Positions 11,162 through 64,000 of a DNA stretch of 64,000 nt are shown piece by piece. The DNA is from Candidatus Oxydemutator sp. (GTDB lineage Bacteria > Pseudomonadota > Gammaproteobacteria > Poriferisulfidales > Oxydemutatoraceae), in the NCBI GenBank assembly GCA_965203445.1, contig OZ241883.1:736001-800000 (forward strand). Reading direction: 5' to 3'. Position 1 is the first letter of the stretch; each line of letters opens with the position of its first letter. Made by a program: the position numbers and the translations under genes. The notes under the pieces were generated by a model, which saw nothing but the letters and a program-made list of their open reading frames with translations, had not been told where the DNA came from and did not search any database.

Positions 11162-11204
11162 GTTTCCCGCACAATCCGCGCCCGGCAAAACGAGGAGAAA
11201 CAGA

Positions 11205-11408: not shown

Positions 11409-11464
11409 CACAAACCGCGTCCCCGCGACGCGTCGTCCCCGCTTTGTCGGCACCGACGGTTTCT

Positions 11465-12040: not shown

Positions 12041-12075
12041 AACCGAGCGGTGCGGCGGTGTAGTATCATGGCGCC

Positions 12076-27248: not shown

Positions 27249-30200
27249 CTACGGCGCCGAAAACGTCCTGCACCGGCCCTGGTTCCCCGGCGCGAGCACG
27301 AAACACCGATCGGCGGACAACACCTCGCCGTCGAAGTCCAAATCCGCGTCCACCGCGTAATTGCCGGCCGCGTCCGGGTCGCGGTACGCGCCCGCGCCCA
27401 ACGACCTCAGGTTGTGCACGCGGATCAATACCTCGTCCCGCTCGTCTATCACGCCGTTGCGATCCACGTCGCCCGCGAACATCGCATACGTGCCTTGCCC
27501 GACTTCGGCCTGCCCGTCCCCGTGCGACTGCGCGAACCGGAAGTCCACGCAGTAGCCGGCGGTGCAGCCCTCGCCGCCGGGCGCCAATGCATTCGCGGAT
27601 ATTACCGACAGGTGGTTGCGGTGGTGCACCAACACGTACACCTGCCCGCCTTCGAGCAGCTCCGTCTCAAAACGCACGCCGTCCAGGAACAGCGCATCCG
27701 CCGCCGTCGCCGCCTCCTCGTTGATCCCTGCGATACGACCGTCGCGCAACAGCAAGCCCGCGGCGCGACCGCCCGTCGTCGGCGCCGATGCCAACGCCGC
27801 GTCCGCGGTCGCGCCGGTGCGCACCTCCACCAGCACCCAGTCCACTATCGTCGAGGTTACGCCGCTCAATCCAGACCCCTCCCCCACGTGCGGCACCGTC
27901 GTCGCCGCCGGGTAGTTCCACGGAGCCACGTTATAGGGTTGTCGCCTCGGCAAAACGTCTATCAATCCGGTGCTCATGCCACGCGAACCCCCATACGCAC
28001 CCTGCAAATACACGCGCGCGTCCACCACCACCAACCTGTCGTCGTTGGCTATCGTTACGACCGTCGAAAACCGGGTCGTGGCAACCGCAACGCTATCGCC
28101 CCGAGTACGCAACAGCCGCAACACCAGCTCCTCCTCCGGTTCTATGACGTAGTCGTCCAACAGGCGCAACCGTATCACCGCCCTCGTCGTGCCCGCGGCC
28201 ATCACCACCATACCGCCATCCTCGTCTCTATAATCGGCACCCGCCGTCGCCGTGCCGCTTACCTGATAATGGATGGTTACGTCCTCGCCGATAACCGTAG
28301 TAGCAGGCGACAAAGCCACCTCGAACCGAAGCTCCACGTCGCTCTCCGTCGTGCGTATATAGGCCGGCGTCGCCAGCATCACCACCGGTACCGACGGCTG
28401 CCTCTGGCGCTGCACGCGGATACTCGTGGTGTTGCCGCCGGGATAACGTATGCTTACACCGCGCAACGCCGGATAATCGAAACGACTCCCGAAATCCCAT
28501 GGCGCGTCGTCGTTCAACGTCACGACACCCATGGCCGTGCTCGCCACGCCGTCCACGTCCAACTGATCCCAACCGGCGTAGATGCCCGCGGCCGCCGTCG
28601 GCGCGCGCAACTCGGTGGACGTCCTGGACGACCGATCCGGCGACGGCTCGTTCTCGCCACAGCACGAAGTCTGCCCGCTGCGCGCGTGGTCAAAGTAGCT
28701 CGCCTGAACGTCGTATTCGGCCGCGTCGGCTTCATCACGCCCCCCCACCAGGCCGCCCCGGTAGATGCTTGCGCCGTGCGCTCCCCCCGTCACCCTGCCT
28801 ATCGAGTAACTGGCGCTCACCACCGAACCTATGGCGGCCCGGCCTATCAGACCACCCGAACGGAGCGCATCCGCATGCACTCGCACGGCCGCGTAACTCG
28901 CCAATACCGTGCCATGATTGGCACCCGCCAGACCGCCCGCCGCAAAAACACCCTTTACGCTGCCGCCTGTCACGTAACACGCCGCCACTTTGCCTTCGTT
29001 ACGACCCACCAACGCCCCCGTGTGCATACTGCCGCCACCCACCTCCACGTTCACGTCCCACAAGCCCACGTTGCGGATCGTGCCGGCGCTGCTTACGGCA
29101 CCGAACAAGCCCGCGTTATCCAACCGTAGCGACGACTGGATACGCAAATTGCTTACGACGTGGCCGTTGCCTTCAAAAACGGCGGTGTAATACTTTATCG
29201 GACGCCCGCCCCCCAACGGCGTCCAGTTCCGCACGCTCGACAAGTCCACGTCGTTCGACAACTCGTAGCCTTTGCAACCGCCCGCACAAGTCTCGGCCTC
29301 GTCAAAAAACGGAAAGGCCTCGTCGTAGGCAACCACGTCTCCATCAGCCACGCCACGCAAACCCGCGCCGCCCAAGTCATAGCGGATCGCCGCCAACTGC
29401 GACGTCGTCGCAACGTTTATCAGATTGTTGCCGTCGGGATCGTAATCCTTCCCGTTCGGGGCGATGACGCTGACGACCGCGGAACTGGCGACGTTCAAGC
29501 GCCGGCGCAACGCGCTCGACGTCAAAAATCCGCTCACTCTCACTCGAAACGTCTCTCTCCTCTCCGACGTCCCGTCATCCGCTATCCCTACCCGGAAAAC
29601 CACGCTGTTGGTATTGGTGAGGAACAGCAACCCATCCCTGTCCCCGTCAAAATCCAACGCCTCGGCGTGGCCGTCGCCGGCACCGGTCAGCTCCACGGAC
29701 CAACTCATCACCAACTGGCTGACGCTGGGAACATCCAATTCTACGATGTACTCAACGTCCTGCCCCTCCGTTACCAGGTCGGCGCCCCGCTGCGACAACG
29801 TCAGCAACACCGGCGGCTGTAGCCGCCGTTGCACGCCGATACCGGCGGTGTTGCCGGTGGGATAACGCGCGCTCACGCCGCGCAACATTGGATAATCCAA
29901 ACCACTCCCGAAATCCCACGGCGCGTCGTCGTTCAAGTCGCCGTCATTGCTCTGATCCACGCCGTCCACGTCCAACTGGTCCCAACCGGCGTAGATGGTG
30001 CCCACGGCCGTCGTCGGCGCGCGCAACTGGACGACCGTCCTCGACGTATGCGCGTCATTCGACGGCATGTTCCGGCCACAGCACGAACTCTGCCCGCTGC
30101 GCTCGCGGTTATAGTAGCTCGCCTGAACGTCATATTCATCGGCGTCGGTCTGGTTACGCTGCCCCACCAGGCCACCTCTTCTGGCGCCTCCACTTTGCAC

Positions 30201-33200
30201 CCTACCTATCGAGTAACTGGCACTCACCACCGAACCTGCAATGGCTTCGCCTATCAGACCACCCGAATTGTTCATGGCCGCGTGCACTTCCACGTCCGCG
30301 TAACTCCCTATTACCACGCCACGATTGACACCCGCCAGTGCGCCCGCCGACCAACCACCCGTCACGCCGCCGCCCGCCACCCAGCACGCCGCCACCCTGC
30401 CGTCGTTGCGGCCCACCAACGCACTCGTAAAAACACTGCCGTCCCCCACGCGCACGCGCGCGTTCCTTACACCCACGTTGCGGATCCTGCCGCCGACGCC
30501 CACGGCGCCGAACAATGCCGCGTAATCCAAGTCTGCCGACGTGTCAATACGCAAATTGCTTATGACGTGGCCGTTGCCCTCGAAAACAGCGGTGTAATAC
30601 GCCAACGGACTCCCGCCCCCTATCGGGATCCAGTCATCGCCTGACAAATCCAGGTCGTTCACCAACTCGTAGCCTTTGCAGCCGCCCGGACACCCGCTTT
30701 CGTCGAAAAACGGAAACGCTTCTTCGTAAGCAACCATGTCTCCATCGGCCACGCCGCGCAAGCCCATACCGCCCAAGTCATAGCGGATCGCCTTCAACTG
30801 CGTCGTCGTCATAACGTCTATCAGATTGTTGTCGTCGGGGTCATAATCGTTCCCATGCGATCTGATAACGCTGACGACCGCGGAACTGGCGGCGCTCAAA
30901 CGCACGTTGTCCGGGCCTTGCAAATTGCTTACCCTTACTCGATAACTCTCTCTCCGTTCCGACGCCCCGTCCTCCGTTACCCGTATGCTGAAAACCGCGC
31001 TGTCGGTGTTGACGAGAGTTATCGTCCCTCGCGTCGCACCGGAAAAATCGGCCGCCTCGGCGTGGCGGGCACCGACACCGACAAGCTCCACCGACCAACT
31101 CACCGTCACCGCGGCTCTGCTGCGAAAATCCAATTCCACCGCGTACGTTACCGTCGAGCCTTCCGCTATCGGATCGTCGCCTCGCTGCGACAGCGTCACC
31201 AATACCGGCGGCTGCAAGCGCCGCTGCACGCCGACATTCGTGCTGTTGCCGGTGGGATAACGCGCGCTCACGCCGCGCAACACCGGATAATCCGAACTAC
31301 TCCCGAAATCCCACGGCGCGTCGTTGAAGTCGCCATCGCCGTCCACGTCCAACTGGTCCCAACCGGCGTAGATGGTGCCCACGGCCGTCGTCGGCGCGCG
31401 CAACTCGGTGGACGTCTTCGACGAACGATCCGGCGACGGCACGTTCGTGCCGCAGCACGCAATCTGCGCGGTGCGCCCGCGGTCAAAGTAGCTCGACTGA
31501 ATCTTGACGGATGATCCGCGCGACCCTATCAGACCACCGTCCTGGTTCCCGGTCTCTTCCACTCGCCCGATGCTGTAACTGGCGCTCACTACGCTCATGT
31601 CGCCGGCACCGCCTATCAAGCCGCCTTTCGCTCGATTCGGGGGAACGGTCGCGGCGCTCACCGACACGTTGGTATAACTCGCCACCACCCTCCCCTTTGC
31701 CCCGGTCAACGCGCCTACCAGGCCGCCCACTCCCCAGCCGCCCGTCACCGACCCGCGCACCACGTAACTCGACGCTATCCTGCCATAGGCAACCCCCGCC
31801 AACGCGCCCGTCTGTATGCTGGTTTCATCCACCGTCACGTTCACGTCCACCAGACCCACGTTGCGGACGACACTGGCGGCGCCCAGGCCGCGGAACAAAC
31901 CCACAAAGTCCCATCGGTTACTCCCGCCGACAATGCGCATGTTCTCGATAACGTGGCCGTTGCCTTCGAACGTCCCGTGGTAACGGTTCTCATCAGGCAG
32001 CAAATTGCCCGGCAACTGATTGCGACCCCCGCCCCCTATCGGGTCCCAGTTGCCGCCCGACAAGTCCAGGTCGTTCAGCAATTCGTAGCCCTTGCACCTG
32101 CCCGGACACGTCTCGAACTCGTCAAAAAGTGGAAATGCGGCTTCGTAGTCATCCACGTCTCCATCGGCCACGCCGCGCAAACCCATCCCGCCCAGATCAT
32201 AGCCAATCGCCTCCAACTGCGACCTTGTCGTTACCTCTATCAGATTGTCGTTGTCGAGGTCGTAATCGGTTCCATGCGAGGCGATAGCACTGACGACCGC
32301 GGAATCGGCGGCACTCAAACGCACGCCGTCCGGGGCTTGCAAACTGCTTAACCGCACCCGAAACGCCTCTCTCGACTCCGACGTCCCGTCCTCCGCTATC
32401 CGGATCCCGAAAACCGCGCTGGCGGTGTCGACGAGAGTTACCGTCCCTCGCGTCGCCCCGACGAAATCGGCCGCCTCGGCGTGGCGGGCACCGACACCGA
32501 CAAGCTCCACCGACCAACTCACCGTCACCGCGGCTCTGCTGCGAAAATCCAATTCCACCGCGTACGTTACCGTCGAGCCTTCCGCTATCGGATCGTCGCC
32601 TCGCTGCGACAACACTACCAATACCGGCGGCTGCAAGCGCCGCTGCACGCCGACATTCGTGCTGTTGCCGGTGGGATAACGCGCGCTCACGCCGCGCAAC
32701 ACCGGATAATCCGAACTACTCCCGAAATCCCACGGCGCGTCGTTGAAGTCGCCATCGCCGTCCAGATCCAACTGGTCCCAACCGGCGTAGATGGTGCCCA
32801 CGGCCGTCGTCGGCGCGCGCAACTCGGTGGACGTCTTCGACGAACGATCCGGCGACGGCACGTTCGTGCCGCAGCACGCAATCTGCGCGGTGCGCCCGCG
32901 GTCAAAGTAGCTCGACTGAATCTTGACGGATGATCCGCGCGACCCTATCAGACCACCGTCCTGGTTCCCGGTCTCTTCCACTCGCCCGATGCTGTAACTG
33001 GCGCTCACTACGCTCATGTCGCCGGCACCGCCTATCAAGCCGCCTTTCGCTCGATTCGGGGGAACGGTCGCGGCGCTCACCGACACGTTGGTATAACTCG
33101 CCACCACCCTCCCCTTTGCCCCGGTCAACGCGCCTACCAGGCCGCCCACTCCCCAGCCGCCCGTCACCGACCCGCGCACCACGTAACTCGACGCTATCCT

Positions 33201-36200
33201 GCCATAGGCAACCCCCGCCAACGCACCCGTCTGTATGCTGGTTTCATCCACCGTCACGTTCACGTCCACCAGACCCACGTTGCGGACGACACTGGCGGCG
33301 CCCAGGCCGCGGAACAAACCCACAAAGTCCCATCGGTTACTCCCGCCGACAATGCGCATGTTCTCGATAACGTGGCCGTGACCCTCGAACGTCCCGTGGT
33401 AACGGTTCTCATCAGGCAGCAAATTGCCCGGCAACTGATTGCGACCCCCGCCCCCTATCGGGTCCCAGTTGCCGCCCGACAAGTCCAGGTCGTTCACCAA
33501 CTCGTAGCCTTTGCAGCCGCCCGGACACCCGCTTTCGTCGAAAAACGGAAACGCTTCGTCGTAAGCAACCATGTCTCCATCGGCCACGCCGCGCAAGCCC
33601 ATACCGCCCAAGTCATAGCCAATCGCCTCCAACTGCGACCTTGTCGTTACCTCTATCAGATTGTCGTTGTCGAGGTCGTAATCGGTTCCATGCGATCTGA
33701 TAACGCTGACGACCGCGGAACTGGCGGCGCTCAAACGCACGTTGTCCGGCGCCTGCAATTCGCTCAACCGCACTCGAAACATCTCTCTCCGTTCCGGCGT
33801 CCCGTCCTCCGTTACCCGTATACTGAAAACCGCGCTGTCGGTGTTGACGAGGGTTATCGTCCCTCGCGTCGCACCGGAAAAATCGGCCGCCTCGGCGTGG
33901 CGGGCACCGACACCGACAAGCTCCACCGACCAACTCACCGTCACCGCGGCTCTGCTGCGAAAATCCAATTCCACCGCGTACGTTACCGTCGAGCCTTCCG
34001 CTATCGGATCGTCGCCTCGCTGCGACAGCGTCACCAATACCGGCGGCTGCAAGCGCCGCTGCACGCCGACATTCGTGCTGTTGCCGGTGGGATAACGCGC
34101 GCTCACGCCGCGCAGCACCGGATAATCCGAACTACTCCCGAAATCCCACGGCGCGTCGTTGAAGTCGCCATCGCCGTCCAGATCCAACTGGTCCCAACCG
34201 GCGTAGATGGTGCCCACGGCCGTCGTCGGCGCGCGCAACTCGGTGGACGTCTTCGACGAACGATCCGGCGACGGCACGTTCGTGCCGCAGCACGAACTCA
34301 GCCTGGCGCGCACGCGATCAAAGTAGCTTGCCTGAATCTCGGCCGACGTGGCGCGAGCACCCGCCAGACCGCCGACCTCGGAACCGCTCCTTCGCAGCAT
34401 CGCCACCGTGTAACTGGCGCTCACTATGCTCATGTCGGAAAGCCTGCCTGCCAGACCGCCCAACGGCCGATTCAGGCTATCCACCAATACGTCGGCATAA
34501 CTGGCAATGATGATTCCACTCCCGTCCAATGTGCCCACCAGACCGCCTATGCCCCAACCGCCGTGCACCTCGCCGCCCACCACGTAACTCGACGCTATCC
34601 TGCCGGAGGCAACCCCGGCCAACGCGCCCGTCTGTATGCTGGTTTCATCCACCGTCACGCTCACGTCCACCAGACCCACGTTGCGGACGACACTGGCGGC
34701 GCCCAGGCCGCGGAACAAACCCACAAAGTCCCATCGGTTACTCCCGCCGACAATGCGCATGTTCTCGATAACGTAGCCGTGACCCTCGAACGTCCCGTTG
34801 TAACGGTTCTCATCAGGCAGCAAATCGCCCGGCAACTGATTGCGACCCCCGCCCCCTATCGGGACCCAGTCCTCGCCCGACAAGTCCAAATCATTCGACA
34901 ACTCATAGCCTTTGCAGCCGCCCGGACACCCGTTTTCCTCGAAGCCCGGAAAGGCTTCTTCGTAAGCAGCCGCGTCGTCCCCATCGGCCACGCCACGCAA
35001 ACCCATCCCGCCCAGATCATAGCCAATCGCCTCCAACTGCGACCTTGTCGTTACCTCTATCAGATTGTCGTTGTCGAGGTCGTAATCGGTTCCATGCGAG
35101 GCGATAGCACTGACGACCGCGGAACTGGCGGCGCTCAAACGCACGTTGTCCGGGCCTTGCAAATTGCTTACCCTTACTCGATAACTCTCTCTCCGTTCCG
35201 ACGCCCCGTCCTCCGTTACCCGTATGCTGAAAACCGCGCTGTCGGTGTTGACGAGAGTTATCGTCCCTCGCGTCGCACCGGAAAAATCGGCCGCCTCGGC
35301 GTGGCGGGCACCGACACCGACAAGCTCCACCGACCAACTCACCGTCACCGCGGCTCTGCTGCGAAAATCCAGTTCCACCGCGTACGTTACCGTCGAGCCT
35401 TCCGCTATCGGATCGTCGCCTCGCTGCGACAACACTACCAATACCGGCGGCTGCAAGCGCCGCTGCACGCCGACATTCGTGCTGTTGCCGGTGGGATAAC
35501 GCGCGCTCACGCCGCGCAACACCGGATAATCCGAACTACTCCCGAAATCCCACGGCGCGTCGTTGAAGTCGCCATCGCCGTCCACGTCCAACTGGTCCCA
35601 ACCAGCGTAGATGGTGCCCACGGCCGTCGTCGGCGCGCGCAACTCGGTGGACGTCTTCGACGAACGATCCGGCGACGGCACGTTCGTGCCGCAGCACGCA
35701 ATCTGCGCGGTGCGCCCGCGGTCAAAGTAGCTCGACTGAATCTTGACGGATGATCCGCGCGACCCTATCAGACCACCGTCCTGGTTCCCGGTCTCTTCCA
35801 CTCGCCCGATGCTGTAACTGGCGCTCACTACGCTCATGTCGCCGGCACCGCCTATCAAGCCGCCTTTCGCTCGATTCGGGGGAACGGTCGCGGCGCTCAC
35901 CGACACGTTGGTATAACTCGCCACCACCCTCCCCTTTGCCCCGGTCAACGCGCCTACCAGGCCGCCCACTCCCCAGCCGCCCGTCACCGACCCGCGCACC
36001 ACGTAACTCGACGCTATCCTGCCATAGGCAACCCCCGCCAACGCGCCCGTCTGTATGCTGGTTTCATCCACCGTCACGTTCACGTCCACCAGACCCACGT
36101 TGCGGACGACACTGGCGGCGCCCAGGCCGCGGAACAAACCCACAAAGTCCCATCGGTTACTCCCGCCGACAATGCGCATGTTCTCGATAACGTGGCCGTT

Positions 36201-43670: not shown

Positions 43671-43745
43671 CTGATGAAACTATGGCATATGTGGCCTTCC
43701 CGTAACATTACCACAAGTTGTCCAGCGGATGGCCAACGATAAAAA

Positions 43746-43787
43746 CCCCTCACCCTCCTTCTTTCCCCCTCTCCCGGAGGGAGAGGG
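43746..43787. repeat. BoxC-like pyrimidine/purine palindromic element
   Basis: CCCCTCACCC...CCCTCTCCC-GGA-GGGAGAGGG hairpin (43767-43787). Confidence 0.5.
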
Positions 43788-43875
43788 TTTGATCGGGGCC
43801 TGCGGCCATTCTTCCTTCATAGGAGAGAGTGGCCCTATATAATATGTGCTTCGATGCACACGCTACTATTGACCG

Positions 43876-44837
43876 ATGCGCGTCCTGGGCCTTGAGACCT
43901 CGTGCGACGAGACCGGCGTCGGGCTGGTGGACTCCGACGCAGGCGTCGTCGCCGAGGCGCTCTTCAGTCAGATCGAGACGCACCGACCGCACGGCGGCGT
44001 CGTGCCGGAGTTGGCGGCGCGCGACCACGTGCATAAGCTGCTGCCGCTGGTGCGCGAGGTGCTCGGCGACGACCTGCTGCGGCGTGTGGACGCGGTGGCC
44101 TACACCGCCGGCCCCGGCCTTGCCGGCGCGCTGCTGACTGGCGCCGTATTCGGACACGGCCTGGCGTGGGCGCTGGGCAAGCCGGCGCTCGGCGTGCACC
44201 ACATGGAGGCGCACATGCTCGCGTGCATGCTGCCGCAGGCGCCGCCGCTGCCGTACCTCGCGCTGCTGGTGTCGGGCGGTCACACCCAGCTGGTCGCGGC
44301 CCACGGGCTGGGCCGCTACGAACTGCTCGGAGACACCTTGGACGATGCGGTCGGCGAGGCCTTCGACAAGTCGCGCGCACCTTGGGCCTGGGTTATCCCG
44401 GCGGCCCGGAGATAGAGCGGCTGGCGCGGCGCGGGCGCGCCGGGCGTTTTGTGTTCCCGCGTCCGATGGCAAACCATCCGGGCCTCGATTTCAGTTTCAG
44501 CGGCCTGAAGACACACGCGCTGCACACCCTGCGCGGACTGCAACGCGACAACGACGACGGCGGCGACGGGCAAGACCGCGCCGACCTGGCGCGCGCCTTC
44601 GAGACCGCGGCCGTCGGCACGCTGGTGCAGCGCTGCCGGCGCGCGCTCGAACAAACCGGCTTCAGCCGCCTGGTCGCCGTCGGCGGCGTCGCCGCCAACG
44701 AACACCTACGCACCGAACTCGCCAAGTTCGACGCGCGCGGCACCGAAGTGATCTATCCAAAGACGAAGTGGTGCACCGACAACGGCGTCATGATCGCCAA
44801 CGCCGGAATGCTGCGCCTGCAAGTCAAGGGGGGTTGA
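43876..44837 (+). pseudogene. tsaD: tRNA t6A threonylcarbamoyltransferase TsaD with a 1-nt frameshift near 44370 (real lesion or sequencing error)
   Basis: [48 protein letters not shown] in one frame; [35 protein letters not shown] in another. Confidence 0.9.
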
Positions 44838-44867
44838 TCAGGGAGGGGAGACGTGCTTCAGGGGCGC

Positions 44868-44939
44868 GGCGCGCAACCCTCGGCACTGCTCATCTCCTGC
44901 GGCCGCCGCGAAAAAGGCACCGGGGCAACCTCGGCAATG
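44868..44939 (+). pseudogene. pyrE: pyrE relic, copy 2
   Basis: GAQPSALLISCGRREKGTGATSAM. Confidence 0.55.
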
Positions 44940-44951
44940 CCGACCCGTTGC

Positions 44952-56900: not shown

Positions 56901-57224
56901 CAACTGATTGCGCCCCCCGCCCCCTATCGGGTTCCAGTCCCTGCCCGACAGGTCCACGTCGTTCAGCAATTCATAACCGTTGCAGGTGCCGGGACAACCC
57001 ATGCCCGGCACGGCGTCGGGAAACGCGGTGCTATAAGCGGCGGGGGCGGCGTTGCCGGCACCCGTCAGATCGTGGGTGATGGCCTGCAACTGCGTCGAAG
57101 TCCTGACGTCTATCAGATTGTTGTCATTGACGTCGTAGTCGACGCTGCCCGTCGGGGTTTGGGCCGCGACGCCGGCGGCAAAAGTCATCAGCAGCAAGCA
57201 CGCGGCAATTCTCATTGTCCACAC
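44952..57224 (-). CDS. Giant secreted modular protein 2: 8 modules plus the same C-terminal domain; probable true start at 57283 is out of frame across a poly-C tract
   Basis: 4090-aa ORF; MRIAACLLLMTFAAGVAA-Q signal peptide; same architecture as gene 1. Confidence 0.85.
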   Translation of the reverse strand: MWTMRIAACLLLMTFAAGVAAQTPTGSVDYDVNDNNLIDVRTSTQLQAITHDLTGAGNAAPAAYSTAFPDAVPGMGCPGTCNGYELLNDVDLSGRDWNPIGGGGRNQLPDGLLPADRYNAVFEGNGHVIENMRIDDRVNGVSTRWDLVGLFRGLGEAGVIRNVGLVNVDVRVPSNSVLTGALAGIVYGRIASSYVAGGEVHGGWVIGALAGELATGTVVASYANVLVDSPQRPLGGLVGKASGMSIVSASYTLATLKRSGVEVGGLVGARDTSAEIQSSYFDRVRSEQSSCCGTNAPTADNTLRTSSQLRIPTTATGTIYAGWDRLDLDGDGDFNDAPWDFGSDLDHPVLRGMSARYPTGNTTSTGVQRRLQPPILVALSQRGGDLVAEGSTVTYAVELDFPIRYEVTMSWSVELVGAGHAEAADFVGATRGRVVLVNTDSAVFRVGIKEDETSEERETYRVRLSSLQGPDNVRLNAASSAVVSVIASNGKDYDLDDNNLIEVATTSQLSAIRYDLDGDGVPDGEAYATTYSAAFPFSDEFGTCPGSCKGYELSNDIDLSDEDWNPIGGGVRNRLPGGLTDENRYHGTFEGNGHVIENMRIDDRVNGVSTRWDFVGLFRGLGVAGVVRNVGLVNVNVSVHPGSVQTGALAGVAYGRIVSSYVAGGAVHGGWGIGGLVGELGGSGIIIASYVDDVLVDTQNRPLGGLVGEASGMSIVSASYTLATLKRSGSEIGGLIGKRATSAEIQSSYFDRVRSEQSSCCGTNPLSPDDTPRTSSDLYAPTTTAGTIYAGWDQLNVDRVDQRDDGDLNDDAPWDFGNRFQYPVLRGVSARYPAGNTTSIGVQRRVQPPVAVALSQRGGSPIAEGSTVTYAVEWNADDEVIGAAVVTMSWSVELVGAGHAEAADFVGATRGRVVLAGTDSAVFGVGIAEDETLELREAFRVRLSSLQAPDGVRLDAASSAVDSVIARNGNDYDLDDNNLIDVMTTSQLSAIRYDLDGDGVPDREAYATTYSAAFPFSDEFGTCPGDCKGYELSNDMDLSGEDWTPIGRGSSRYNAVFEGNGHVVRNMKFTRAVGSDRYDDVGLFGILGAGGKIRSVGIENVSVNAPESVGVGALAGTAYGRIAASYAVGGVVTGSWAVGGLVGEIFGGTVIASYSDVAVHGRGQRAGGLIGSVSGGVGVGQSVVSASYTIGVPTGGGGHRGGLTGFNDSSFLELQSSYFDRRRAGLSACCGTSMPSSNSAPARMSAELRGPTSAMGIYAGWGQLNVDGVDQLDDDDLNDDAPWDFGSSSEYPVLRGMSARYPTGNTTSTGVQRRLQPPVLATLSQRGDVLATEDSTATYAVELDVPSVGAVTMNWSVELTGAGTGHAAAADFSGATSGEVVLVDTDGVVFRIGIARDDGLERLERFRVRLSDLRGPDNFRLSVAASAVVSFIAPQGRDYDDNDDGLIEVATTSQLAAITHDLRGRGLAGVDYGGVAAYEAVFPYFDVEETCASGCKGYELLNDLDLSGLAWQPIGGGGLDPRVGGRLPEEHLYNAVFEGNGHVISNMEAVLSSKPWHFVGLFRGLGAGGVIRNVGLANVYVFVHRSSIQTGALAGVNYGGKMAACWVTGRGHRDGDVSGGWGAGGLVSHNEGTIIASYTDVDVRVAASPAGGLAGYNASGGKIIASYSLDSVGQPPVYWSHVARNNGGLVGINAAASTAIESSYFDTDSSGLSSGGDSVSATTVRTSRELRSPVAAEGIYAAWSGLDVDDTSSTVMGVLTLNDDNPWDFGTNLDYPVLRGVSARYPKGNTTGIRVQRPVADVLVTLSQGAERTFEGDAAEYTVALGAYGPAVTMTWSVELTGVGEGHAEASDFDGATSGQVVLAGTDSAVFTITIEDGDGPEGRETFRVRLSEPRGLDGLRLSAASSAVVSVIARSGGTDYDPDGDNLIEVATTSQLSAIRYDLGGMGLLGVADGDDADAYKEAFPFFNESSTCPGTCAGYELSNDLDLSSVGNWTPLGGGSPLEYYTAVFEGNGHVISNLRIESPSLNNAGLFSAVGVGGRIRNVGLRDVFVSVGAGVHTGALVGRNEGRVAACYVLGGSVDGQAGRVKGVWGAGGLAGANGGAVIASYADVGVHADAHTAGGLIGEAIAGSVVSASYSVGMVSGGRYGGSTVRGGLLGRRNESDADKYDVQASYYDRGRSGQTSCCGGQTPPSSDAQTSRTSLQLRAPTSAVGIYAGWDKLDVDGVDQLDDDDLNDDAPWDFGSGFDYPVLRGVSARFPGGNAAGIGVQRRLQPQVLLTLSQRGADLLTEGQVVEYTVELDGRVSQLVMNWSVEYTGAGDGHAEASDFDGDRDGVLVLTNTSSAVFQVRIADDVRPELRETFRVRVSRFLTSGALRQRLNVASSAVVSVIASHGKNYDADDNGLIDVMTTSQLSAIRYDLRGMGLGGVDGEDVAAVAAYEGAFPFFDEIGACAGGCKGYELLNDVDLSGLAWQPIGGGGLDPRVDGRLPEKYLYKAVFEGNGHVISNMEVNAPNVVWHFVGLFRGLGASGVIRNVGLMGAKVAVHMNSISTGGLAGVNYGGKVAACYVVGEDDQGDVIGSWTVGGLVGGNEGTIIASYANAYVRGAASPTGGLVGYNAPGGKIIASYSLGIVGLARVVWPHATRNDGGLVGQNDAASTAIEASYYDRDSGGLSSGGTNVSATAVRTSRELRSPVAAEGIYAAWSGLNVDDTTGTVMGVLTLNDDNPWDFGTNLDYPVLRGVSERYPDGNTTGIRAQRLAAGVFVTLSQGAGRKSEGEEAEYAVTLSTRGAGAVTMNWSVELTGVGEGHAEALDFDGATSGQVVLVDTASAVFQVGIKEDETPERRETFRVRVSDLQGPDNVRLNPAGSAVVSVIAPNGRDYDPDGNNLINVATTSQLAAIRYDLGGAGLRGVADGDVVAYDEAFPFFDKVKTCAGGCKGYELSNDVDLSSVGNWTPLGGGNPIRYYTAVFEGNGHVVSNLRIQSSLRLDNAGLFGAVSGVGTIRNMGLRDVNVEVGGGSMHTGALVGRNEGKVAACYVTGGSVKGVSATGGLAGANHGTVLASYAAVGVHADGLRSGGLIGRAAAGSVVSASYSIGRVTGGARGGSTYRGGLVGGRDEADAAEYDVQASYFDRARSGQSSCCGENEPSPDRSSRTSIELRAPTAAVGIYAGWDQLDVDGVASTAMGAVTLNDDAPWDFGSGLDYPVLRGVSARYPTGNTTSVGVQRRLQPPVSLTLSQRGADLVTEGQDVEYIVELDVPSVIQLVMNWSVEYTGAGEGHAEALDFDGDRDGFLFLTNTRSAVFQVSIADDGTPERRETFRVKVSGFVASSALRRRLNVASSAVVSVIAPNGKDYDPDGNNLINVATTSQLAAIRYDLGGAGLRGVADGDVVAYDEAFPFFDEAETCAGGCKGYELSNDVDLSSVGNWTPLGGGRPIKYYTAVFEGNGHVVSNLRIQSSLRLDNAGLFGAVSGVGTIRNVGLRDVNVEVGGGSMHTGALVGRNEGKVAACYVTGGSVEGVFAAGGLAGANYGAVLASYAAVGVHADGLRSGGLIGRAAAGSVVSASYSIGRVTGGAHGASTYRGGLVGGRDEADAAEYDVQASYFDRARSGQSSCCGENEPSPDRSSRTSIELRAPTAAVGIYAGWNQLDVDGVASTAMGVVTLNDDAPWDFGSRLDYPVLRGVSARYPGGNTTSIRVQRQRQPLLPVVMLATPAHIRTTESDVELRFEVALSPATTVISGSVTIHYQVSGTATAGADYRDEGRGMVVMAAGTTRAVIRLRLLDDDAIEPEEELVLRLLRVQGDNVAVATTRFSTVVTIANDDRLVVVVNARVYLQGAYGGSRGMSTGLIDVLPRRQPYNVAPWNYSAATTVPHVGEGSGLSGVTSTIVDWVLVELRTGATADAALASAPTPGGRAAGLLLRDGRIAGINEEAATAADALFLDGVRFETELLEGGQVYVSVHHRNHLSVISANALAPGGEGCNAGYCVDFRFAQSHGDGQAEVGQGTYAMFAGDVDRNGVIDERDEVLIRVHNLRSLTSLGAGAYRDPDAAGNYAVDADLDFDGEVLSADRCFVLAPGTQGRCRTFSAP

Positions 57225-57241
57225 CCTGCTATGCGGGATCA

Positions 57242-57262
57242 GGGGGGGGGGGGGGGGGGGGG
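57242..57262 (-). repeat. Homopolymer G21 (C21 on the coding strand) at the 5' end of giant gene 2
   Basis: 21 consecutive G read directly; homologous position in gene 1 is G7 (43580-43586). Confidence 0.85.
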
Positions 57263-57289
57263 TAGGCGGATGTCGCGCACCATGCGCTG

Positions 57290-57295
57290 ATTATA
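57290..57295 (-). promoter_or_regulatory. -10 box TATAAT 6 nt upstream of ATG 57283
   Basis: Plus-strand ATTATA; no convincing -35 found. Confidence 0.5.
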
Positions 57296-57440
57296 ATCCT
57301 GTATGTTCCCTAAAACCGTCCCCCTGAGAAGTCTCCGAAAAACACGGGCGGTTCAAGGTAAGTTGGCGTCGGGCATCAGCGGATAGGCGAGGCGGTCGCT
57401 TCTCTCACTATAATATAGACACGGGGCTTACCACCTTGCG

Positions 57441-57560
57441 TCAGCGGGCGACATCGCGCGCGCGGCCATCGCCATCATCCGCGACGCCGGCGCGCAACCC
57501 TCGGCACTGCTCATCTCCTGCGGCCGCCGCGAAAAAGGCACCGGGGCAACCTCGGCAATG
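57441..57560 (+). pseudogene. pyrE: pyrE relic, copy 3 (longest)
   Basis: SAGDIARAAIAIIRDAGAQPSALLISCGRREKGTGATSAM aligns without gaps to the recalled PyrE segment [40 protein letters not shown]. Confidence 0.6.
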
Positions 57561-57572
57561 CCGACCCGTTGC

Positions 57573-60500
57573 CTACGGCGCCGAAAACGTCCTGCACCGG
57601 CCCTGGGTCCCCGGCGCGAGCACGAAACACCGATCAGCGGACAACACCTCGCCGTCGAAGTCCAAATCCGCGTCCACCGCGTAATTGCCGGCCGCGTCCG
57701 GGTCGCGGTACGCGCCCGCGCCCAACGACGTCAACGACCTCAGGTTGTGCACGCGGATCAATACCTCGTCCCGCTCGTCTACCACGCCGTTGCGATCCAC
57801 GTCGCCCGCGACCATCGCATACGTGCCTTGCCCGACTTCGGCCTGCCGACCCCCGTGCGACTGCGCGAACCGGAAGTCCACGCAGTAGCCGGCGTTACAT
57901 CCCTCGCCGCCGGGCGCCGATGCATTCGCGGATATTACCGACAGGTGGTTGCGGTGGTGCACCAACACGTACACTTCCTGACCTTCGGGCAGCTCCGTCT
58001 CAAAATGCACGCCGTTCAAGAACAGCGTATCCGCCGCCGTCGCCGCCTCCTCGTTGATCCCTGCGATACGACCGTCGCGCAACAGCAAACCCGCGGCGCG
58101 ACCGCCCGTCGTCGGCGCCGATGCCAACGCCGCGTCCGCGGTCGCGCCGGTGCGCACCTCCACCAGCACCCAGTCCACTATCGTCGAGGTTACGCCGCTC
58201 AATCCAGACCCCTCCCCCACGTGCGGCACCGTCGTCGCCGCCGGGTAGTTCCACGGAGCCACGTTATAGGGTTGTCGCCTCGGCAAAACGTCTATCAATC
58301 CGGTGCTCATGCCACGCGAACCCCCATACGCACCCTGCAAATACACGTGCGCGTCCACCACCAACCTGTCGTCGTTGGCTATCGTTACGACCGTCGAAAA
58401 CCGGGTCGTGGCAACCGCAACGCTATCGCCCCGAGTACGCAACAGCCGCAACACCAGCTCCTCCTCCGGTTCTATGACGTAGTCGTCCAACAGGCGCAAC
58501 CGTATCACCGCCCTCGTCGTGCCCACGGCCATCACCACCATACCGCCATCCTCGTCTCTATAATCGGCACCCGCCGTCGCCGTGCCGCTTACCTGATAAT
58601 GGATGGTTACGTCCTCGCCGATAACCGCAGTAGCAGGCGACAAAGCCACCTCGAACCGAAGCTCCACGTCGCTCTCCGTCGTGCGTATATAGGCCGGCGT
58701 CGCCAGCATCACCACCGGTACCGACGGCTGCCTCTGGCGCTGCACGCGGATACTCGTGGTGTTGCCGCCGGGATAACGTATGCTTACACCGCGCAACGCC
58801 GGATAATCGAAACGACTCCCGAAATCCCACGGCGCGTCGTCATTCAACGTCACGACACCCATGGCCGTGCTCGCCACGCCGTCCACGTCCAACTGGTTCC
58901 AACCGGCGTAGATGCCCACGGCCGCCGTCGGCGCGCGCAACTCGATGGACGTCCTGGACGACCGATCCGGCGACGGCTCGTTCTCGCCACAACACGAACT
59001 CTGCCCGCTGCGCTCGTGGTCAAAGTAGCTCGCCTGAACGTCGTATTCGGCCGCGTCGGCTTCATCACGCCCCCCCACCAGGCCGCCCCGGTAGGTGCTT
59101 GCGCCGTGCGCTCCCCCCGTCACCCTGCCTATCGAGTAACTGGCGCTCACCACCGAACCTATGGCGGCCCGGCCTATCAGACCACCCGAGCGGAGCCCAT
59201 CCGCGTGCACTCCCACGGCCGCGTAACTCGCCAATACCGTGCCATGATTGGCACCCGCCAGACCGCCCGTCGCAGAAACACCCTTTACGCTGCCGCCTGT
59301 CACGTAACACGCCGCCACCTTGCCTTCGTTACGACCCACCAACGCCCCCGTATGCATACTGCCGCCACCCACCTCCACGCTCACGTCCCGCAAGCCCACG
59401 TTGCGGATCGTGCCGACGCCGCTTACGGCGCCGAACAAGCCCGCGTTATCCAACCGTAGCGACGACTGGATACGCAAGTTGCTTACGACGTGGCCGTTGC
59501 CTTCAAAAACGGCGGTGTAATACTTTATCGGATTCCCGCCCCCCAACGGCGTCCAGTTCCGCACGCTCGACAAGTCCACGTCGTTCGACAACTCGTAGCC
59601 TTTGCAACCGCCCGCGCAAGTCTCGGCCTCGTCAAAAAACGGAAAGGCCTCGTCGTAGGCAACCACGTCTCCATCAGCCACGCCACGCAAACCCGCGCCG
59701 CCCAAGTCATAGCGGATCGCCGCCAACTGCGACGTCGTCGCAACGTTTATCAGATTGTTGCCGTCGGGATCGTAATCCTTCCCGTTCGGGGCGATGACGC
59801 TGACGACCGCGGAACTGGCGACGTTCAAGCGCTGGCGCAACGCGCTCGACGTCAAAAATCCGCTCACTCTCACTCGAAACGTCTCTCTCCTCTCCGACGT
59901 CCCGTCATCCGCTATCCCTACCCGGAAAACCACGCTGTTGGTATTGGTGAGGAACAGCAACCCATCCCTGTCCCCGTCAAAATCCAACGCCTCGGCGTGG
60001 CCGTCGCCGGCACCGGTGTACTCCACGGACCAACTCATCGCCAACTGGCTGACGCTGGGAACATCCAATTCTACGATGTACTCAACGTCCTGCCCCTCCG
60101 TTACCAGGTCGGCGCCCCGCTGCGACAACGTCAGCGACACCGGCGGCTGCAAGCGCCGTTGCACGCCGGCACTCGTGGTGTTGCCGGTGGGATAACGCGC
60201 GCTCACGCCGCGCAACATCGGATAATCCAAACCACTCCCGAAATCCCACGGCGCGTCGTCGTTCAACGTCCGCACGCCCATGACCGTGCCCGTCGTGTCG
60301 TCCACGTTCAGCTTGTCCCAACCGGCGTATATGCCCATCGCCGCCGTCGGGGCGCGCAACTGGACCGAGGTCCTCGACGTCTGCGCGTCCGACGACGGCA
60401 TGCGCTGGCCACAGCACGATGTCTGCCCGCTGCGCCCGCGGTCATAGTAGCTTGCCTGAACGTCGTATACGGCGTCGTCGGTTTCGTTACGCTGCCCCAC

Positions 60501-63500
60501 CAGGCCGCCCCTTCTGGGACCTCCATCTTGTGAACCCCCGGTCACCTTGCCTATCGAGTAACTGGCACTCACCACCGAACCTGCAACGGCTTCGCCTATC
60601 AGACCACCCGAGTTGTTCCTGGCCGCGTGCACTGCCACGTTCGCGTAACTCGCTATTACCACGCCATGATTGACACCCACCAGACCACCCGCCGACCAAC
60701 CACCCGTTACGCCGCCGCCCGCCACCCAACACGCCGCCACCCTGCCGTCGTTGCGACCCACCAACGCACTCGTAAAAACACTGTCGTCCCCCACGTTCAC
60801 GCGCGCGTTCCTTACGCCCACGTTGCGGATCGTGCCGCCGACGCCCACGGCGCTGAACAATGCCGCGTAATTCAAGTTCGACATCGAAACGATACTCATG
60901 CTGCTTATCACAAAGCCGTTGCCTTCAAAAACCGCGGTGTAATACGCCAACGGACTCCCGCCCCCTATCGGGATCCAGTCATCGCCTGACAAATCCAGGT
61001 CGTTCACCAACTCGTAGCCTTTGCAGCCGCCCGGACACCCGCTTTCGTCGAAAAACGGAAACGCTTCTTCGTAAGCAACCACGTCGTCTCCATCAGCCAC
61101 GCCGCGCAAGCCCATACCGCCCAAGTCATAGCGGATCGCCTTCAACTGCGTCGTCGTCATAACGTCTATCAGATTGTTGTCGTCGGGGTCATAATCGTTC
61201 CCATTCGAGGCGATGACGCTGACGACCGCGGAACTGGCGGCGCTCAGACGCAGCCCGTCCAAACCCCTCGGCTCGCTCAAGCGCACGCGGAACGTCTCTC
61301 TCCCTTCCGATCCGTCGCCATCCTCGATAGCTATCCTGAAAACCGCGCTGTCGGTGCCCGCCAGAACCACCTGCCCGCGCGTCGCCGCGGAAAAGTCGTC
61401 CGCATCGGCGTGGCCCATGCCGACGCCGGTGAACTCCACCGACCAGGTCATCGTCACCGCGGGACCGTAAGCGCCCAATGTCACCGCGTACTCCGCCTCC
61501 GCGCCCTCCAATTTGTTTCCGGCGCCCTGCGACAACGTCACCAATACATTGGCCACCGGGCGCTGCGCCCGGACGCCGGTGGTGTTGCCCTTGGGATAAC
61601 GCGCGCTTACGCCGCGCAACGCCGGATAATCCACATTCGTGCCGAAATCCCACGGGTTGTCGTCGTCCAGCGTCGAAACGCCCATCACCGTGCTCGACGT
61701 ATCGTCCACGTTCAGACCGCTCCAGGCCGCATAAATGCCCTCGGCCGCGATCGGCGAACGCAACGCCCGGCTCGTCTGTACCGCCGACGACGACACGTCC
61801 ACACCGCCCGACGATAAGCCGCTGCGTTGTCTGTCAAAGTAACTGCTCTCTATCGCGCCATCGTTGTGGCCCACCAGACCGCCCATGTCCCTGTCTCGCA
61901 CGCCGCGAACTCGAACATTCTCCAGTTTCACATTTCTCAATGAATAACTCGCTATGATCTTCGCGCCGGGGGCGTTATAACCCACCAGACCACCGGCACC
62001 GGCCGCACCCGTCCCCACCGTCACGTCGGTGTAGCTGGCAATGATCGTTCCCCCATTGAAGGCCACCAGACCACCCACACCCCAACCGCCGATCATATCT
62101 CCATCGGGGTGCCCTCTGCCCGTCACCCAACACGCCGCCACCTTGCCGCCGTAGTTGACCCCCACCAATCCGGCCGTCTGTATACTGCTTGGATGCAAGG
62201 CCACGCGCACGTCCGCCAGGCCCACGTTGCGGATGACACCGCCTACGCCCAAGCCCTGGAACAAGGCCACAAATTGCCAAGGCCTCCCCCCACTGACTAC
62301 TCTCATATTGCTGATAACGTGGCCGTTGCCTTCGAATACTCCTTTGTAAAGGTATTCCTCGGGCAGCCGTTGACCGGGGCCGCGGGCATCGCGTAGCCCG
62401 CTCCCTATCGGTTGCCAAGTCAGGCCCGACAAGTCCAGGTCGTTCAACAATTCGTAGCCGGTGCAGCCGCGCGTACACGTCTCCCCCACGTCAAAAAACG
62501 GATACGCGGCTTCGTACGCGACTACGTCTCCATAATCCACGCCGGCCAGACCTCTGCCTCTCAAATCATGGGTTATCGCCGCCAACTGCGACGTCGTCGC
62601 GACCTCTATCAGACCATCGTCATTTTCGTCGTAGTCCCTACCCTGCGGTGCGATGAAGCTGACGACCGCGGAAGCGGCGACGCTCAAACGAAAGTTGTCC
62701 GCGCCCTGCAAATCAGAAAGCCGCACCCGAAAACGCTCCAGCCGTTCCAACCCGTCGTCCTCTTCGATGGTTATCCTGAAAACCGCGCTGTCGGTATTGA
62801 CCAGAACCACCTCCCCGCTCGTCGCACCGGAAAAATCGGCCGCGGCGGCGTGGCCGGTGCCGGCACCGGTCAGCTCCACCGACCAATTCATCGTAACCGC
62901 GCCGACACTGGGAACGTCAAGTTCCACCGCATACGTCGCCGTCGAACCTTCCGTTGCCAGAACGTCGCCTCGCTGCGATAGCGTCGCCAATACCGGCGGC
63001 TGCAAGCGCCGCTGCACGCCGGCACTCGTGCTGTTGCCGGTGGGATAACGCGCGCTCATGCCGCGCAGCAACGGATATTCCGAACTATTCCCGAAATCCC
63101 ACGGCGCGTCGTTGAAGTCGCCGTCGGCGTCCACATCCAACTTGTCCCAACCGGCGTAGATGCCCATAGCCGACGTCGGGCCGCGCAACTCGGCGGACGT
63201 CCTGGCGGGCGCACTGTTCGACGACGGCATGCTCGTACCGCAGCACGCACTCAACCCGGCGCGCCGGCGGTCAAAGTAGCTTGACTGAAGCTCCAAAAAG
63301 GAAGAATCATTAAACCCTGTCAAACCGCCTCTATGACCTCCCCCGCCGGTCGGAACCCCTATCGTGTAGCTGGCGCTCACTACGGACTGGCCCACGCCCA
63401 CGCCGCCGCTCACGCTGCCTATCAAACCGCCCGCTCTTTGTCCCCGGCCATGCACCGCCACGTCGCTGTAACTGGCAATCACGGTTCCCCCGAAGATCTC

Positions 63501-64000
63501 GCCCACCAGACCGCCTACCGCCCAGGAACCGGTCACCACCCCGCCGACCGCGTAACTCGCCGCTATCCTGCCGTAGGCAGTCCCCGCCAACGCGCCTACC
63601 CCCACGCTTTCAGGCGCATTCACGCTCACGTTCTCCAGACCTACCGAACGGATTTTGCCGCCGGCGCCCAAGATGCCGAACAAGCCCACGTCGTCATAAC
63701 GATCACTGCCGACGGCTCGTGTGAACTTCATGTTCCTGACGACGTGGCCGTTGCCTTCGAATACGGCGTTGTAGCGGGACGACCCCCTGCCTATCGGGAT
63801 CCAGTCATCGCCTGACAAATCCAGGTCGTTCACCAACTCGTAGCCTTTGCAGCCGCCCGGACACCCACTTTCGTCAAAAGACGGAAATGCCTCGTCGTAA
63901 GCGACCATGTCTCCATCAGCCACGCCGCGCAAACCCATACCGCCCAAGTCATAGCGGATCGCCGACAACTGCGACGTCGTCATAACGTCTATCAGATTGT
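57573..64000 (-). CDS. Giant modular protein 3, 5' part outside the window: at least 4 modules plus the same C-terminal domain
   Basis: Frame stays open to the window edge (..NLIDVMTTSQL); ends CRTFSAP like genes 1 and 2. Confidence 0.85.
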   Translation of the reverse strand, partial: NLIDVMTTSQLSAIRYDLGGMGLRGVADGDMVAYDEAFPSFDESGCPGGCKGYELVNDLDLSGDDWIPIGRGSSRYNAVFEGNGHVVRNMKFTRAVGSDRYDDVGLFGILGAGGKIRSVGLENVSVNAPESVGVGALAGTAYGRIAASYAVGGVVTGSWAVGGLVGEIFGGTVIASYSDVAVHGRGQRAGGLIGSVSGGVGVGQSVVSASYTIGVPTGGGGHRGGLTGFNDSSFLELQSSYFDRRRAGLSACCGTSMPSSNSAPARTSAELRGPTSAMGIYAGWDKLDVDADGDFNDAPWDFGNSSEYPLLRGMSARYPTGNSTSAGVQRRLQPPVLATLSQRGDVLATEGSTATYAVELDVPSVGAVTMNWSVELTGAGTGHAAAADFSGATSGEVVLVNTDSAVFRITIEEDDGLERLERFRVRLSDLQGADNFRLSVAASAVVSFIAPQGRDYDENDDGLIEVATTSQLAAITHDLRGRGLAGVDYGDVVAYEAAYPFFDVGETCTRGCTGYELLNDLDLSGLTWQPIGSGLRDARGPGQRLPEEYLYKGVFEGNGHVISNMRVVSGGRPWQFVALFQGLGVGGVIRNVGLADVRVALHPSSIQTAGLVGVNYGGKVAACWVTGRGHPDGDMIGGWGVGGLVAFNGGTIIASYTDVTVGTGAAGAGGLVGYNAPGAKIIASYSLRNVKLENVRVRGVRDRDMGGLVGHNDGAIESSYFDRQRSGLSSGGVDVSSSAVQTSRALRSPIAAEGIYAAWSGLNVDDTSSTVMGVSTLDDDNPWDFGTNVDYPALRGVSARYPKGNTTGVRAQRPVANVLVTLSQGAGNKLEGAEAEYAVTLGAYGPAVTMTWSVEFTGVGMGHADADDFSAATRGQVVLAGTDSAVFRIAIEDGDGSEGRETFRVRLSEPRGLDGLRLSAASSAVVSVIASNGNDYDPDDNNLIDVMTTTQLKAIRYDLGGMGLRGVADGDDVVAYEEAFPFFDESGCPGGCKGYELVNDLDLSGDDWIPIGGGSPLAYYTAVFEGNGFVISSMSIVSMSNLNYAALFSAVGVGGTIRNVGVRNARVNVGDDSVFTSALVGRNDGRVAACWVAGGGVTGGWSAGGLVGVNHGVVIASYANVAVHAARNNSGGLIGEAVAGSVVSASYSIGKVTGGSQDGGPRRGGLVGQRNETDDAVYDVQASYYDRGRSGQTSCCGQRMPSSDAQTSRTSVQLRAPTAAMGIYAGWDKLNVDDTTGTVMGVRTLNDDAPWDFGSGLDYPMLRGVSARYPTGNTTSAGVQRRLQPPVSLTLSQRGADLVTEGQDVEYIVELDVPSVSQLAMSWSVEYTGAGDGHAEALDFDGDRDGLLFLTNTNSVVFRVGIADDGTSERRETFRVRVSGFLTSSALRQRLNVASSAVVSVIAPNGKDYDPDGNNLINVATTSQLAAIRYDLGGAGLRGVADGDVVAYDEAFPFFDEAETCAGGCKGYELSNDVDLSSVRNWTPLGGGNPIKYYTAVFEGNGHVVSNLRIQSSLRLDNAGLFGAVSGVGTIRNVGLRDVSVEVGGGSMHTGALVGRNEGKVAACYVTGGSVKGVSATGGLAGANHGTVLASYAAVGVHADGLRSGGLIGRAAIGSVVSASYSIGRVTGGAHGASTYRGGLVGGRDEADAAEYDVQASYFDHERSGQSSCCGENEPSPDRSSRTSIELRAPTAAVGIYAGWNQLDVDGVASTAMGVVTLNDDAPWDFGSRFDYPALRGVSIRYPGGNTTSIRVQRQRQPSVPVVMLATPAYIRTTESDVELRFEVALSPATAVIGEDVTIHYQVSGTATAGADYRDEDGGMVVMAVGTTRAVIRLRLLDDYVIEPEEELVLRLLRTRGDSVAVATTRFSTVVTIANDDRLVVDAHVYLQGAYGGSRGMSTGLIDVLPRRQPYNVAPWNYPAATTVPHVGEGSGLSGVTSTIVDWVLVEVRTGATADAALASAPTTGGRAAGLLLRDGRIAGINEEAATAADTLFLNGVHFETELPEGQEVYVLVHHRNHLSVISANASAPGGEGCNAGYCVDFRFAQSHGGRQAEVGQGTYAMVAGDVDRNGVVDERDEVLIRVHNLRSLTSLGAGAYRDPDAAGNYAVDADLDFDGEVLSADRCFVLAPGTQGRCRTFSAP

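Follow-up and report, generated by a model that had tools for sequence, protein, structure and literature searches.

How could a bacterium hold giant modular proteins on its surface, and how is their repertoire renewed? These questions are raised by a 64,000-nucleotide (nt) stretch of the genome of Candidatus Oxydemutator sp. (OZ241883.1, positions 736,001 to 800,000; hereafter the window), which contains a tandem array of three giant genes. An earlier note on this sequence had read the array as an undescribed variable adhesin locus for host or phage interaction. Here, we report that the C-terminus shared by the three proteins is predicted to fold as an X-module plus dockerin (XDoc), like the XDocII of the Clostridium thermocellum scaffoldin CipA. 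This identification is the key to the mechanism. We propose that the giants are secreted and dock via the XDoc on an outer-membrane cohesin stalk, a model to which we assign a probability of roughly 0.6 for this genome. Shuffled tandem adhesins alone are of a known kind; what is new is the docking domain, above all a split tag/adaptor form of it that we found in related genomes.

The three open reading frames (ORFs) all lie on the minus strand (27249-43670, 44952-57224 and from 57573 to an open end; Table 1), with probable starts at 43550 for gene 1 and 57215 for gene 2. ORF and module mapping agreed with the earlier count of 11, 8 and at least 4 modules. Gene 3 extends past the window to ~71194 and has nine modules in total, with a frameshift in its first module; its first in-window module begins 19 nt outside the window. 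A fourth gene beyond it (genome 808147-816606) has Calx-beta-like repeats and the same C-terminus. The module, put at ~470 amino acids (aa) in the earlier note, is 456-491 aa long, except for the final one of each gene, which has 354 aa and a different Calx-beta domain behind it. The motifs listed for it were also recovered: among 33 modules from genes 1-3 and one distant paralogue, CxxxCxGYEL and WDFG....[YH]PxL are present in every one and the CC pair in 27. Genes 1 and 2 do begin with Sec signal peptides (MRIAACL...AAAQ/VAAQ, read by eye), and the C-terminus described as near-identical shows 95-97% identity among the three genes over 283 aa.

The head of each module resembles the GLUG/peptidase M26 N-terminal beta-helix (PF07581, PF05342; IgA1 protease, PDB 6xjb), with an Atlas score of 0.96 and 195 shared features and with structure matches at E 4.6e-4 in PDB and E 1.9e-4 to ZmpA, whereas the heads here have a Cys-rich cap, occur 8-33 times per protein and are accompanied by no protease domain that we could find. 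There was no direct match of the head modules to Pfam Glug. A Pfam scan was run on gene 2, on as much of gene 3 as lies in the window and on two segments of gene 1; Calx-beta was the only family over cut-off, the last Calx-beta domain of each gene passing PF03160; the in-module Calx-beta-like copies match exchanger structures at E 0.07 only. With signal peptides and no RTX family in the same scan, the proteins do not match the type I-secreted RTX adhesins of the LapA/BapA kind.

For the last 259 residues of gene 1, AlphaFold2 gave a model with a predicted local distance difference test score (pLDDT) of 90.7, in which a beta-sandwich X module precedes a C-terminal dockerin with two loops. The motifs of both loops are retained. 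The top ten Foldseek rows were chains from cellulosomal scaffoldins that contain an X module plus type II dockerin (best E 8.5e-4), and in an unbiased VIA search XDoc structures reached Z 9.3 (root-mean-square deviation 3.9, 152 aligned) and 9.0, the next fold scoring 4.0. XDoc has 26 matches in this genome, one of them a fragment. Within the family, 16 of 18 genomes contain it, versus none of the 22 genomes of other families searched. Fused XDocs also end many secreted proteins in Bacteroidales, Ignavibacteria, Calditrichota and Cloacimonadota, often several per contig, and three of these Bacteroidota-group copies stand directly after a Pfam cohesin. Because the domain ends many Bacteroidota-group proteins and no Pfam family over cut-off covers the fused form, the name X-dockerin should be useful beyond this genome. 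A 687-aa ORF (genome 893360-895423, plus strand), in which an N-terminal X-dockerin precedes a hydrolase-like region (by eye), holds the sole full copy in the genome that is not C-terminal.

Cellulosomal cell-surface anchors attach via SLH. The closest known counterparts of the system proposed here are CipA and its SdbA-type anchors (PDB 2b59, 5g5d, 3kcp, 2bm3), with which it shares a C-terminal X module plus dockerin and the logic of large proteins held on a cell-anchored cohesin. However, the host here is Gram-negative, the anchor would be GlyGly-CTERM instead of SLH, and the X module is larger and has an invariant HR[NH]HL motif. The passengers also differ in being without an enzyme or cohesin array by Pfam, and no cohesin-array scaffoldin recruiting carbohydrate-active enzymes, the hallmark of a cellulosome, was seen in the array pieces scanned.

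Adaptor, tag and predicted cohesin stalk in related genomes

Relatives carry one to five XDoc copies per genome, nearly always as a small secreted protein (the adaptor). Public records that encode this adaptor belong to Candidatus Porisulfidus, which we take to be sponge symbionts. The first strand of the X module, VDARVYLQGAY in gene 1, is present in all 25 copies examined here and absent in 28 of 29 copies from the fetched loci of relatives; in the Bacteroidota group it is present in 79 of 82 copies and absent in only one of the 80 that are untruncated. The missing strand recurs in the relatives as the C-terminal end (…RVFLEGxLx-stop) of other proteins. We refer to this end of ~13 residues, R-x-R/K-VFLEG-A/P-L-x and then a stop, as the tag. 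Its DNA pattern gave 103 matches in 15 of 18 family genomes, with up to 26 in one genome, against seven for the reversed control. When 19 tag loci of the family were read, the stop came exactly 10 codons after the motif start in 16 and within 14 codons in 17, although two of the 19 had no long frame upstream; at loci in other families a stop came within 14 codons in one of 10. No tag-ended ORF was found in the Oxydemutator genome itself.

The adaptor gene is followed by one for a giant with an N-terminal domain that is predicted to adopt a cohesin fold (pLDDT 80.5). Foldseek placed the SdbA type II cohesin first for this domain, and all of its top 20 rows in VIA were cohesins or cohesin-like (Z 11.0-7.3). 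The order of adaptor gene and then stalk gene was found in nine of the 10 XDoc-bearing relatives covered, the tenth having a stalk with a divergent tip, and in 12 further fetched loci (nine by hidden Markov model (HMM), three by eye). Among 69 proteins with the family cohesin, strict patterns placed a GlyGly-CTERM at the end of 25 and a tag at the end of 10, many of the others being fragments. For one relative (G015), the complex predicted from its adaptor, tag and cohesin scored 0.50 versus 0.00 for the best of three controls; with a contact agreement of 47% and a partner pLDDT of at least 64 it was graded weak, and passes at scores of 0.60 or less also comprised 18 of 157 solved complexes and both of the two mismatches that passed.

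These observations suggest a plug-in display common to the family, in which the tag would supply the first strand of the X module to an adaptor lacking it, the completed adaptor would bind a GlyGly-CTERM cohesin stalk, and the genes in the window would represent a fused form. We regard this broader reading as evenly balanced. According to it, the tag would be a sorting signal read by strand complementation and not by a protease. In donor-strand complementation, as in chaperone-usher and type V pili, a terminal strand completes the beta-sandwich of another protein. The proposed role of the tag strand, which we deduce from sequence, is similar; the acceptor, in contrast, would be an X-dockerin adaptor through which unrelated passengers are joined to a cohesin, and not a polymer of pilins. 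An X module split into tag and adaptor is a further difference from CipA and SdbA, and to our knowledge it is unknown from any cellulosome. In a quick tree, the XDocs of this genome and close metagenomic relatives formed a clade of their own apart from the split adaptors (support 98); the latter grouped weakly (77).

If correct, the split tag and adaptor would constitute a new kind of C-terminal sorting signal, the ten-codon motif would identify the surface proteome of these uncultured bacteria, and the two parts could serve as a natural peptide-tag/catcher pair. Our literature search, whose coverage mostly excluded subscription journals, found no account of the XDoc domain, the tag, the adaptor or the system.

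Several further gene arrangements deserve mention. In G011, a 650-aa protein (L136:2014-3966) that starts with a cohesin and ends in a complete X-dockerin is encoded between the adaptor gene and a GlyGly-CTERM cohesin gene, and is a candidate extender. G005, G015 and G017 (L017-L019) have tandem units of an adaptor gene and a giant with an N-terminal cohesin and a C-terminal tag; under the plug-in reading such proteins could chain head to tail, and these giants could thus polymerise. Three cohesin-like domains are present in each of P0116, P0170, P0176 and L132:1869-8003, which resemble scaffoldin-like stalks.

Head modules and their mosaicism

The genome is one contig of 2.38 megabases (Mb) and is 100% complete. 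Thirty giant or related genes span 520,513 nt, or 21.9% of it, and the 179 full heads counted genome-wide form 80 clusters when grouped at 80% identity. The array is therefore just one part of a family that is spread over the genome: the adhesin-like anatomy that the earlier note had recognised holds, but the locus is not self-contained. Six XDoc giants in tandem occupy 159 kilobases elsewhere (genome 569222-727874, minus strand), with products of up to 16,130 aa. Other giants, at genome 156892-161556 and 319503-330950 (both minus strand), consist of leucine-rich repeats that end in an XDoc, or of repeats of an FG-GAP/VCBS-like kind (by eye) and have no XDoc or GlyGly-CTERM tail.

Mosaicism of the modules, which the earlier note had also proposed, is evident from several lines of analysis. 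When modules were painted by similarity, the nearest relative changed abruptly inside modules; for instance, the core of module 1 of gene 1 is 97-100% like module 10 and its start is 74-87% like others. Site incompatibility was 0.375 for near sites versus 0.448 after permutation (P 0.001), and the closest head sits in another gene for 90 of the 179 heads. Within gene 1, sequence is shared exactly over up to 665 nt. Gene 2 has 12 exact tracts (2608 nt, the longest 556 nt) in common with a paralogue 1.28 Mb away, and its modules 5 and 6 are 99% identical to modules of that distant gene. Among the matches listed, all exact repeats of at least 150 nt are direct. The shared flanks noticed earlier proved to be pyrE fragments, which trail four stop codons, a sign that 3' ends were copied along with their neighbourhood.

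The genome has RecA and a ComEC-type competence gene. A reverse transcriptase, as required for a diversity-generating retroelement, gave no match in the genome (the control search was positive in three of 14 genomes), and no tyrosine recombinase lies next to the array as in a shufflon, the two found being at genome 257 kb and 1.81 Mb, ~0.5 and ~1.0 Mb away (serine recombinases were not searched). This agrees with the earlier suggestion that no dedicated recombinase is needed, and the repertoire would be remodelled by RecA-type recombination and gene conversion among ~180 heads.

The ratio of nonsynonymous to synonymous substitution rates (dN/dS) was calculated on 25 non-independent pairs, with classes of head columns defined on other genes, and was 1.17 for variable, 0.89 for middling and 0.25 for framework columns. 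The framework is thus under purifying selection, and the variable columns are free to vary, at a near-neutral ratio. Variable residues recur at the turn preceding each GGLVG repeat, and on a beta-helix these turns would stack on one face. Likely targets of such heads would be host glycans or matrix.

One explanation of these data, compatible with the docking model, is that the heads are structural spacers and their mosaicism an unselected by-product of repeats through concerted evolution. The near-neutral ratios of variable and middling columns fit this explanation, as do six modules of gene 1 that are 87-98% alike, that is, homogenised and not diversified. On the other hand, purifying selection on the framework, the recurrence of variable residues before each GGLVG on what would be one face of a beta-helix, and the upkeep of 80 head types in a 2.4-Mb genome argue for more than spacing. 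We consider the spacer explanation a serious contender that falls somewhat short of an even chance.

A candidate stalk in this genome

A docking partner was sought in this genome as well. Rhombosortase and GspD are both present over cut-off, as expected of a genome with GlyGly-CTERM proteins, and four long proteins have GlyGly-CTERM-like tails (by eye and by the A4 profile), although TIGR03501 found no match in any genome searched. The proteins in the window end in XDoc, without such a tail. One of these four, the candidate stalk (genome 1622100-1627385), is encoded directly after a 9047-aa XDoc giant (locus 1594987-1627385), which is the order seen in the relatives. Its tip (genome 1622271-1623035; N-terminal 250 residues) aligns end to end with the family cohesins at 12-20% identity, two N-terminal cysteines being in register. 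One homologue of the tip (46%) was found among shorter proteins, and none among proteins of 937-2982 aa or in metagenome contigs. An Atlas search for a cohesin of this genome showed low recognition, with barrel-like matches that we judged uninformative.

In the docking model, the giants would be Sec-exported surface fibres in which GLUG-type beta-helix heads are spaced by Calx-beta-like domains, probably exported via the type II secretion system. The dockerin would bind a stalk protein that carries the cohesin at its tip and is anchored to the outer membrane through the GlyGly-CTERM/rhombosortase route, so many passengers would share one or few docking sites. Under the plug-in reading, ~25 giant, recombining, partly phase-variable adhesins would compete for few stalks. 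This is a candidate route for a small-genome, sponge-associated gammaproteobacterium to attach and swap giant surface proteins, and it would extend cohesin-dockerin anchoring to type II secretion with rhombosortase. GlyGly-CTERM/rhombosortase/type II display has been described before (PMC6219818), and its components (rhombosortase, GspD and GlyGly-CTERM-like tails) are also present here; the difference is that the window proteins would be shown indirectly, through the stalk.

The nearest precedent from a symbiosis is in Chlorobium chlorochromatii, where a bond is predicted between the C-terminal dockerin of Cag_2038 and the N-terminal cohesin of Cag_2037 (bioRxiv 10.64898/2026.03.19.712371). 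As far as the accessible text of that work goes, these are adjacent giant symbiosis genes with the dockerin gene first, as here, whereas they form a single pair for which type I secretion is proposed, and interchangeable passengers, a GlyGly-CTERM stalk or a split tag are not described in it. Other reports describe adhesins of the cohesin/dockerin type in syntrophic sulfate reducers (PMC10553843), modules resembling dockerins and cohesins in Saccharophagus degradans (PMC2386152), and giants rich in dockerins in Omnitrophota (bioRxiv 10.1101/2023.11.21.568195).

Several points weigh against the docking model. Pfam Dockerin_1 matches the domain at 16.6 bits, under its cut-off of 22.9. In this genome neither Pfam Cohesin nor five rounds of family cohesin HMMs gave any match, and hhalign of the candidate tip reached a probability of at most 2%, no better than control segments; a cohesin in this genome is the weakest link of the model. 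The XDoc beside the candidate stalk belongs to another subtype (38% identity), and the window proteins may for this reason not partner this stalk. The complex that passed concerns the proteins of a relative and not those of the window, its score does not include tag binding, and the pass may reflect likeness to solved XDoc-cohesin complexes. The dN/dS of the variable columns fits neutral drift. Moreover, proteins of 4,000-17,000 residues would have to pass through the type II secretion system.

It might accordingly be asked whether the fused X-dockerin has any cohesin partner here, or is instead a folding or secretion cap or a binder of a foreign cohesin, with the giants shed into the matrix of the host or otherwise held. 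The failure of every profile to find a cohesin in the genome and the separate clade of its XDocs would suit that explanation. However, the profile tests are insensitive: with the same profile, true Pfam cohesins reached only 1.3%, and three relatives have cohesin-like tips that were missed. Because the tests fail on true cohesins too, the nulls in this genome are not decisive. The conserved XDoc-then-stalk order, the alignment of the candidate tip with its cysteines in register and the two retained dockerin loop motifs also speak for a partner, and we think a partnerless X-dockerin unlikely.

Population variation, homopolymer runs and assembly

In its strong form, the reading of the earlier note amounts to fast combinatorial variation, with module order reshuffled within the population in evasion of host or phage. 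The long exact tracts within and between distant genes do indicate recent exchange, and a contig from another study (X3), in which the 3' end of a giant gene is joined to the tsaD copy with a different spacer, shows a strain difference, at this one junction only. In contrast, there is no silent cassette store or single expression site, every gene having its own signal peptide and start, and neither a reverse transcriptase match nor a nearby recombinase was found. In contigs of run X1, a possible source sample, 16 of the 19 joints listed among the many found can be traced to paralogues at other sites of the genome, and these contigs, which cannot resolve module order, thus give no evidence that order varies within the population; the remaining three have sides of 21-29 letters and are unexplained by paralogues. 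We therefore find such rapid reshuffling quite improbable.

A switch of another kind was suggested by the poly-C run before gene 2. The run exists, with 21 nt at the 5' end of a surface gene as in homopolymer phase variation, and gene 3 has C8 at the equivalent position. It is, however, not the frameshift switch that might be expected: in gene 2, as in gene 3 and a run-less paralogue, the upstream ATG and the ORF are in different frames (by eye). Given its place before the probable ATG, the run could do no more than tune expression; it is a candidate slippage-prone expression switch, outside the coding frame provided that translation starts at this ATG. A TATAAT was seen by eye upstream of the poly-C; a promoter/terminator scan of 57150-57620 found none. 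In Moraxella catarrhalis uspA1, a poly-G homopolymer 29 bp upstream of the adhesin ORF leads to graded expression through phase variation (PMC7302503); the likeness of the C21, 26 nt upstream, is one of position.

Across the genome, 12 G/C runs of 18-28 nt were observed versus 0.004 expected. Of 13 runs of at least 11 nt, five are no more than 300 nt from the 5' end of a giant (P 3e-8), the other eight being elsewhere. In two giants outside the window, G27 and G25 runs begin at the ATG and set the frame. By position, slippage at such runs would probably set which giants are made. The two belong to the six-gene tandem, where two more giants have a G8. Eight runs of 18-28 nt are away from giants (genome 81736, 359212, 1381142, 1381208, 1459668, 1480509, 1824504 and 1918062); at least two of these are at 5' ends of long ORFs, one glycosyltransferase-like by eye, and are possible contingency loci.

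That the array is a misassembly of repeats is very improbable: long near-identical tracts and a gene 3 frameshift at a short G run could hint at one, but the modules are diverged mosaics (54-98% alike) and not duplicates, the genome is one complete contig, and the array shows a depth in X1 that follows copy number (33, 33 and 20.5 for single-copy pieces; 51.9 and 61.8 for pieces with two matching copies). The array assembly is thus supported, and so is the module order, which is short of proven because every X1 piece is shorter than the gene it covers. A sponge metagenome of another study (X5) also contains parts of the array, at 92-98% identity. The frameshift of the tsaD duplicate between genes 1 and 2 had been suspected as an assembly error and is real, since an X1 contig carries it with no differences at a depth of 33. 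The duplicate may derive from a sister lineage, along with a giant gene, as it is only 86% identical to the other copy in the genome.

Table 1. Coordinates of features of the array within the window
Feature	Position	Strand	Remarks
Gene 1	27249..43550	-	Signal peptide, 11 GLUG-type head (+ Calx-beta-like) modules, last Calx-beta, X-dockerin; 5433 aa
XDoc of gene 1	27252..28025	-	AlphaFold2, Foldseek, VIA; dockerin loops from 27476 down
Last Calx-beta of gene 1	28026..28385	-	Pfam PF03160, 33.6 bits, cut-off 27
Modules 4-9 of gene 1	30849..39338	-	Recently homogenised block, 87-98% DNA identity
C7 run	43580..43586	-	Upstream of gene 1 probable start
tsaD duplicate, frameshifted	43876..44823	+	Other copy at genome 1063915-1064883 (86% identical)
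Gene 2	44952..57215	-	Signal peptide, 8 modules, Calx-beta, X-dockerin; 4087 aa
X-dockerin of gene 2	44955..45737	-	Sequence match to gene 1 domain
C21 run (G21 on plus strand)	57242..57262	-	26 nt upstream of gene 2 probable ATG
Gene 3, 3' part	57573..64000	-	4 modules, Calx-beta, X-dockerin from 58358
pyrE fragment behind gene 1 stop codon	27165..27230	+	Shared flank
pyrE fragment behind gene 2	44867..44935	+	Shared flank
pyrE fragment behind gene 3	57444..57556	+	Shared flank

An Rfam scan of the window gave no match. Upstream of gene 1, a palindromic repeat of ~60 nt (window 43747-43816) recurs widely in the genome and is REP-like. To the left of the array and unrelated to it, window 10049-13185 (plus strand) contains a TrpD/YbiB-like gene and a gene of the Sfum_1244 family, the match being over cut-off.

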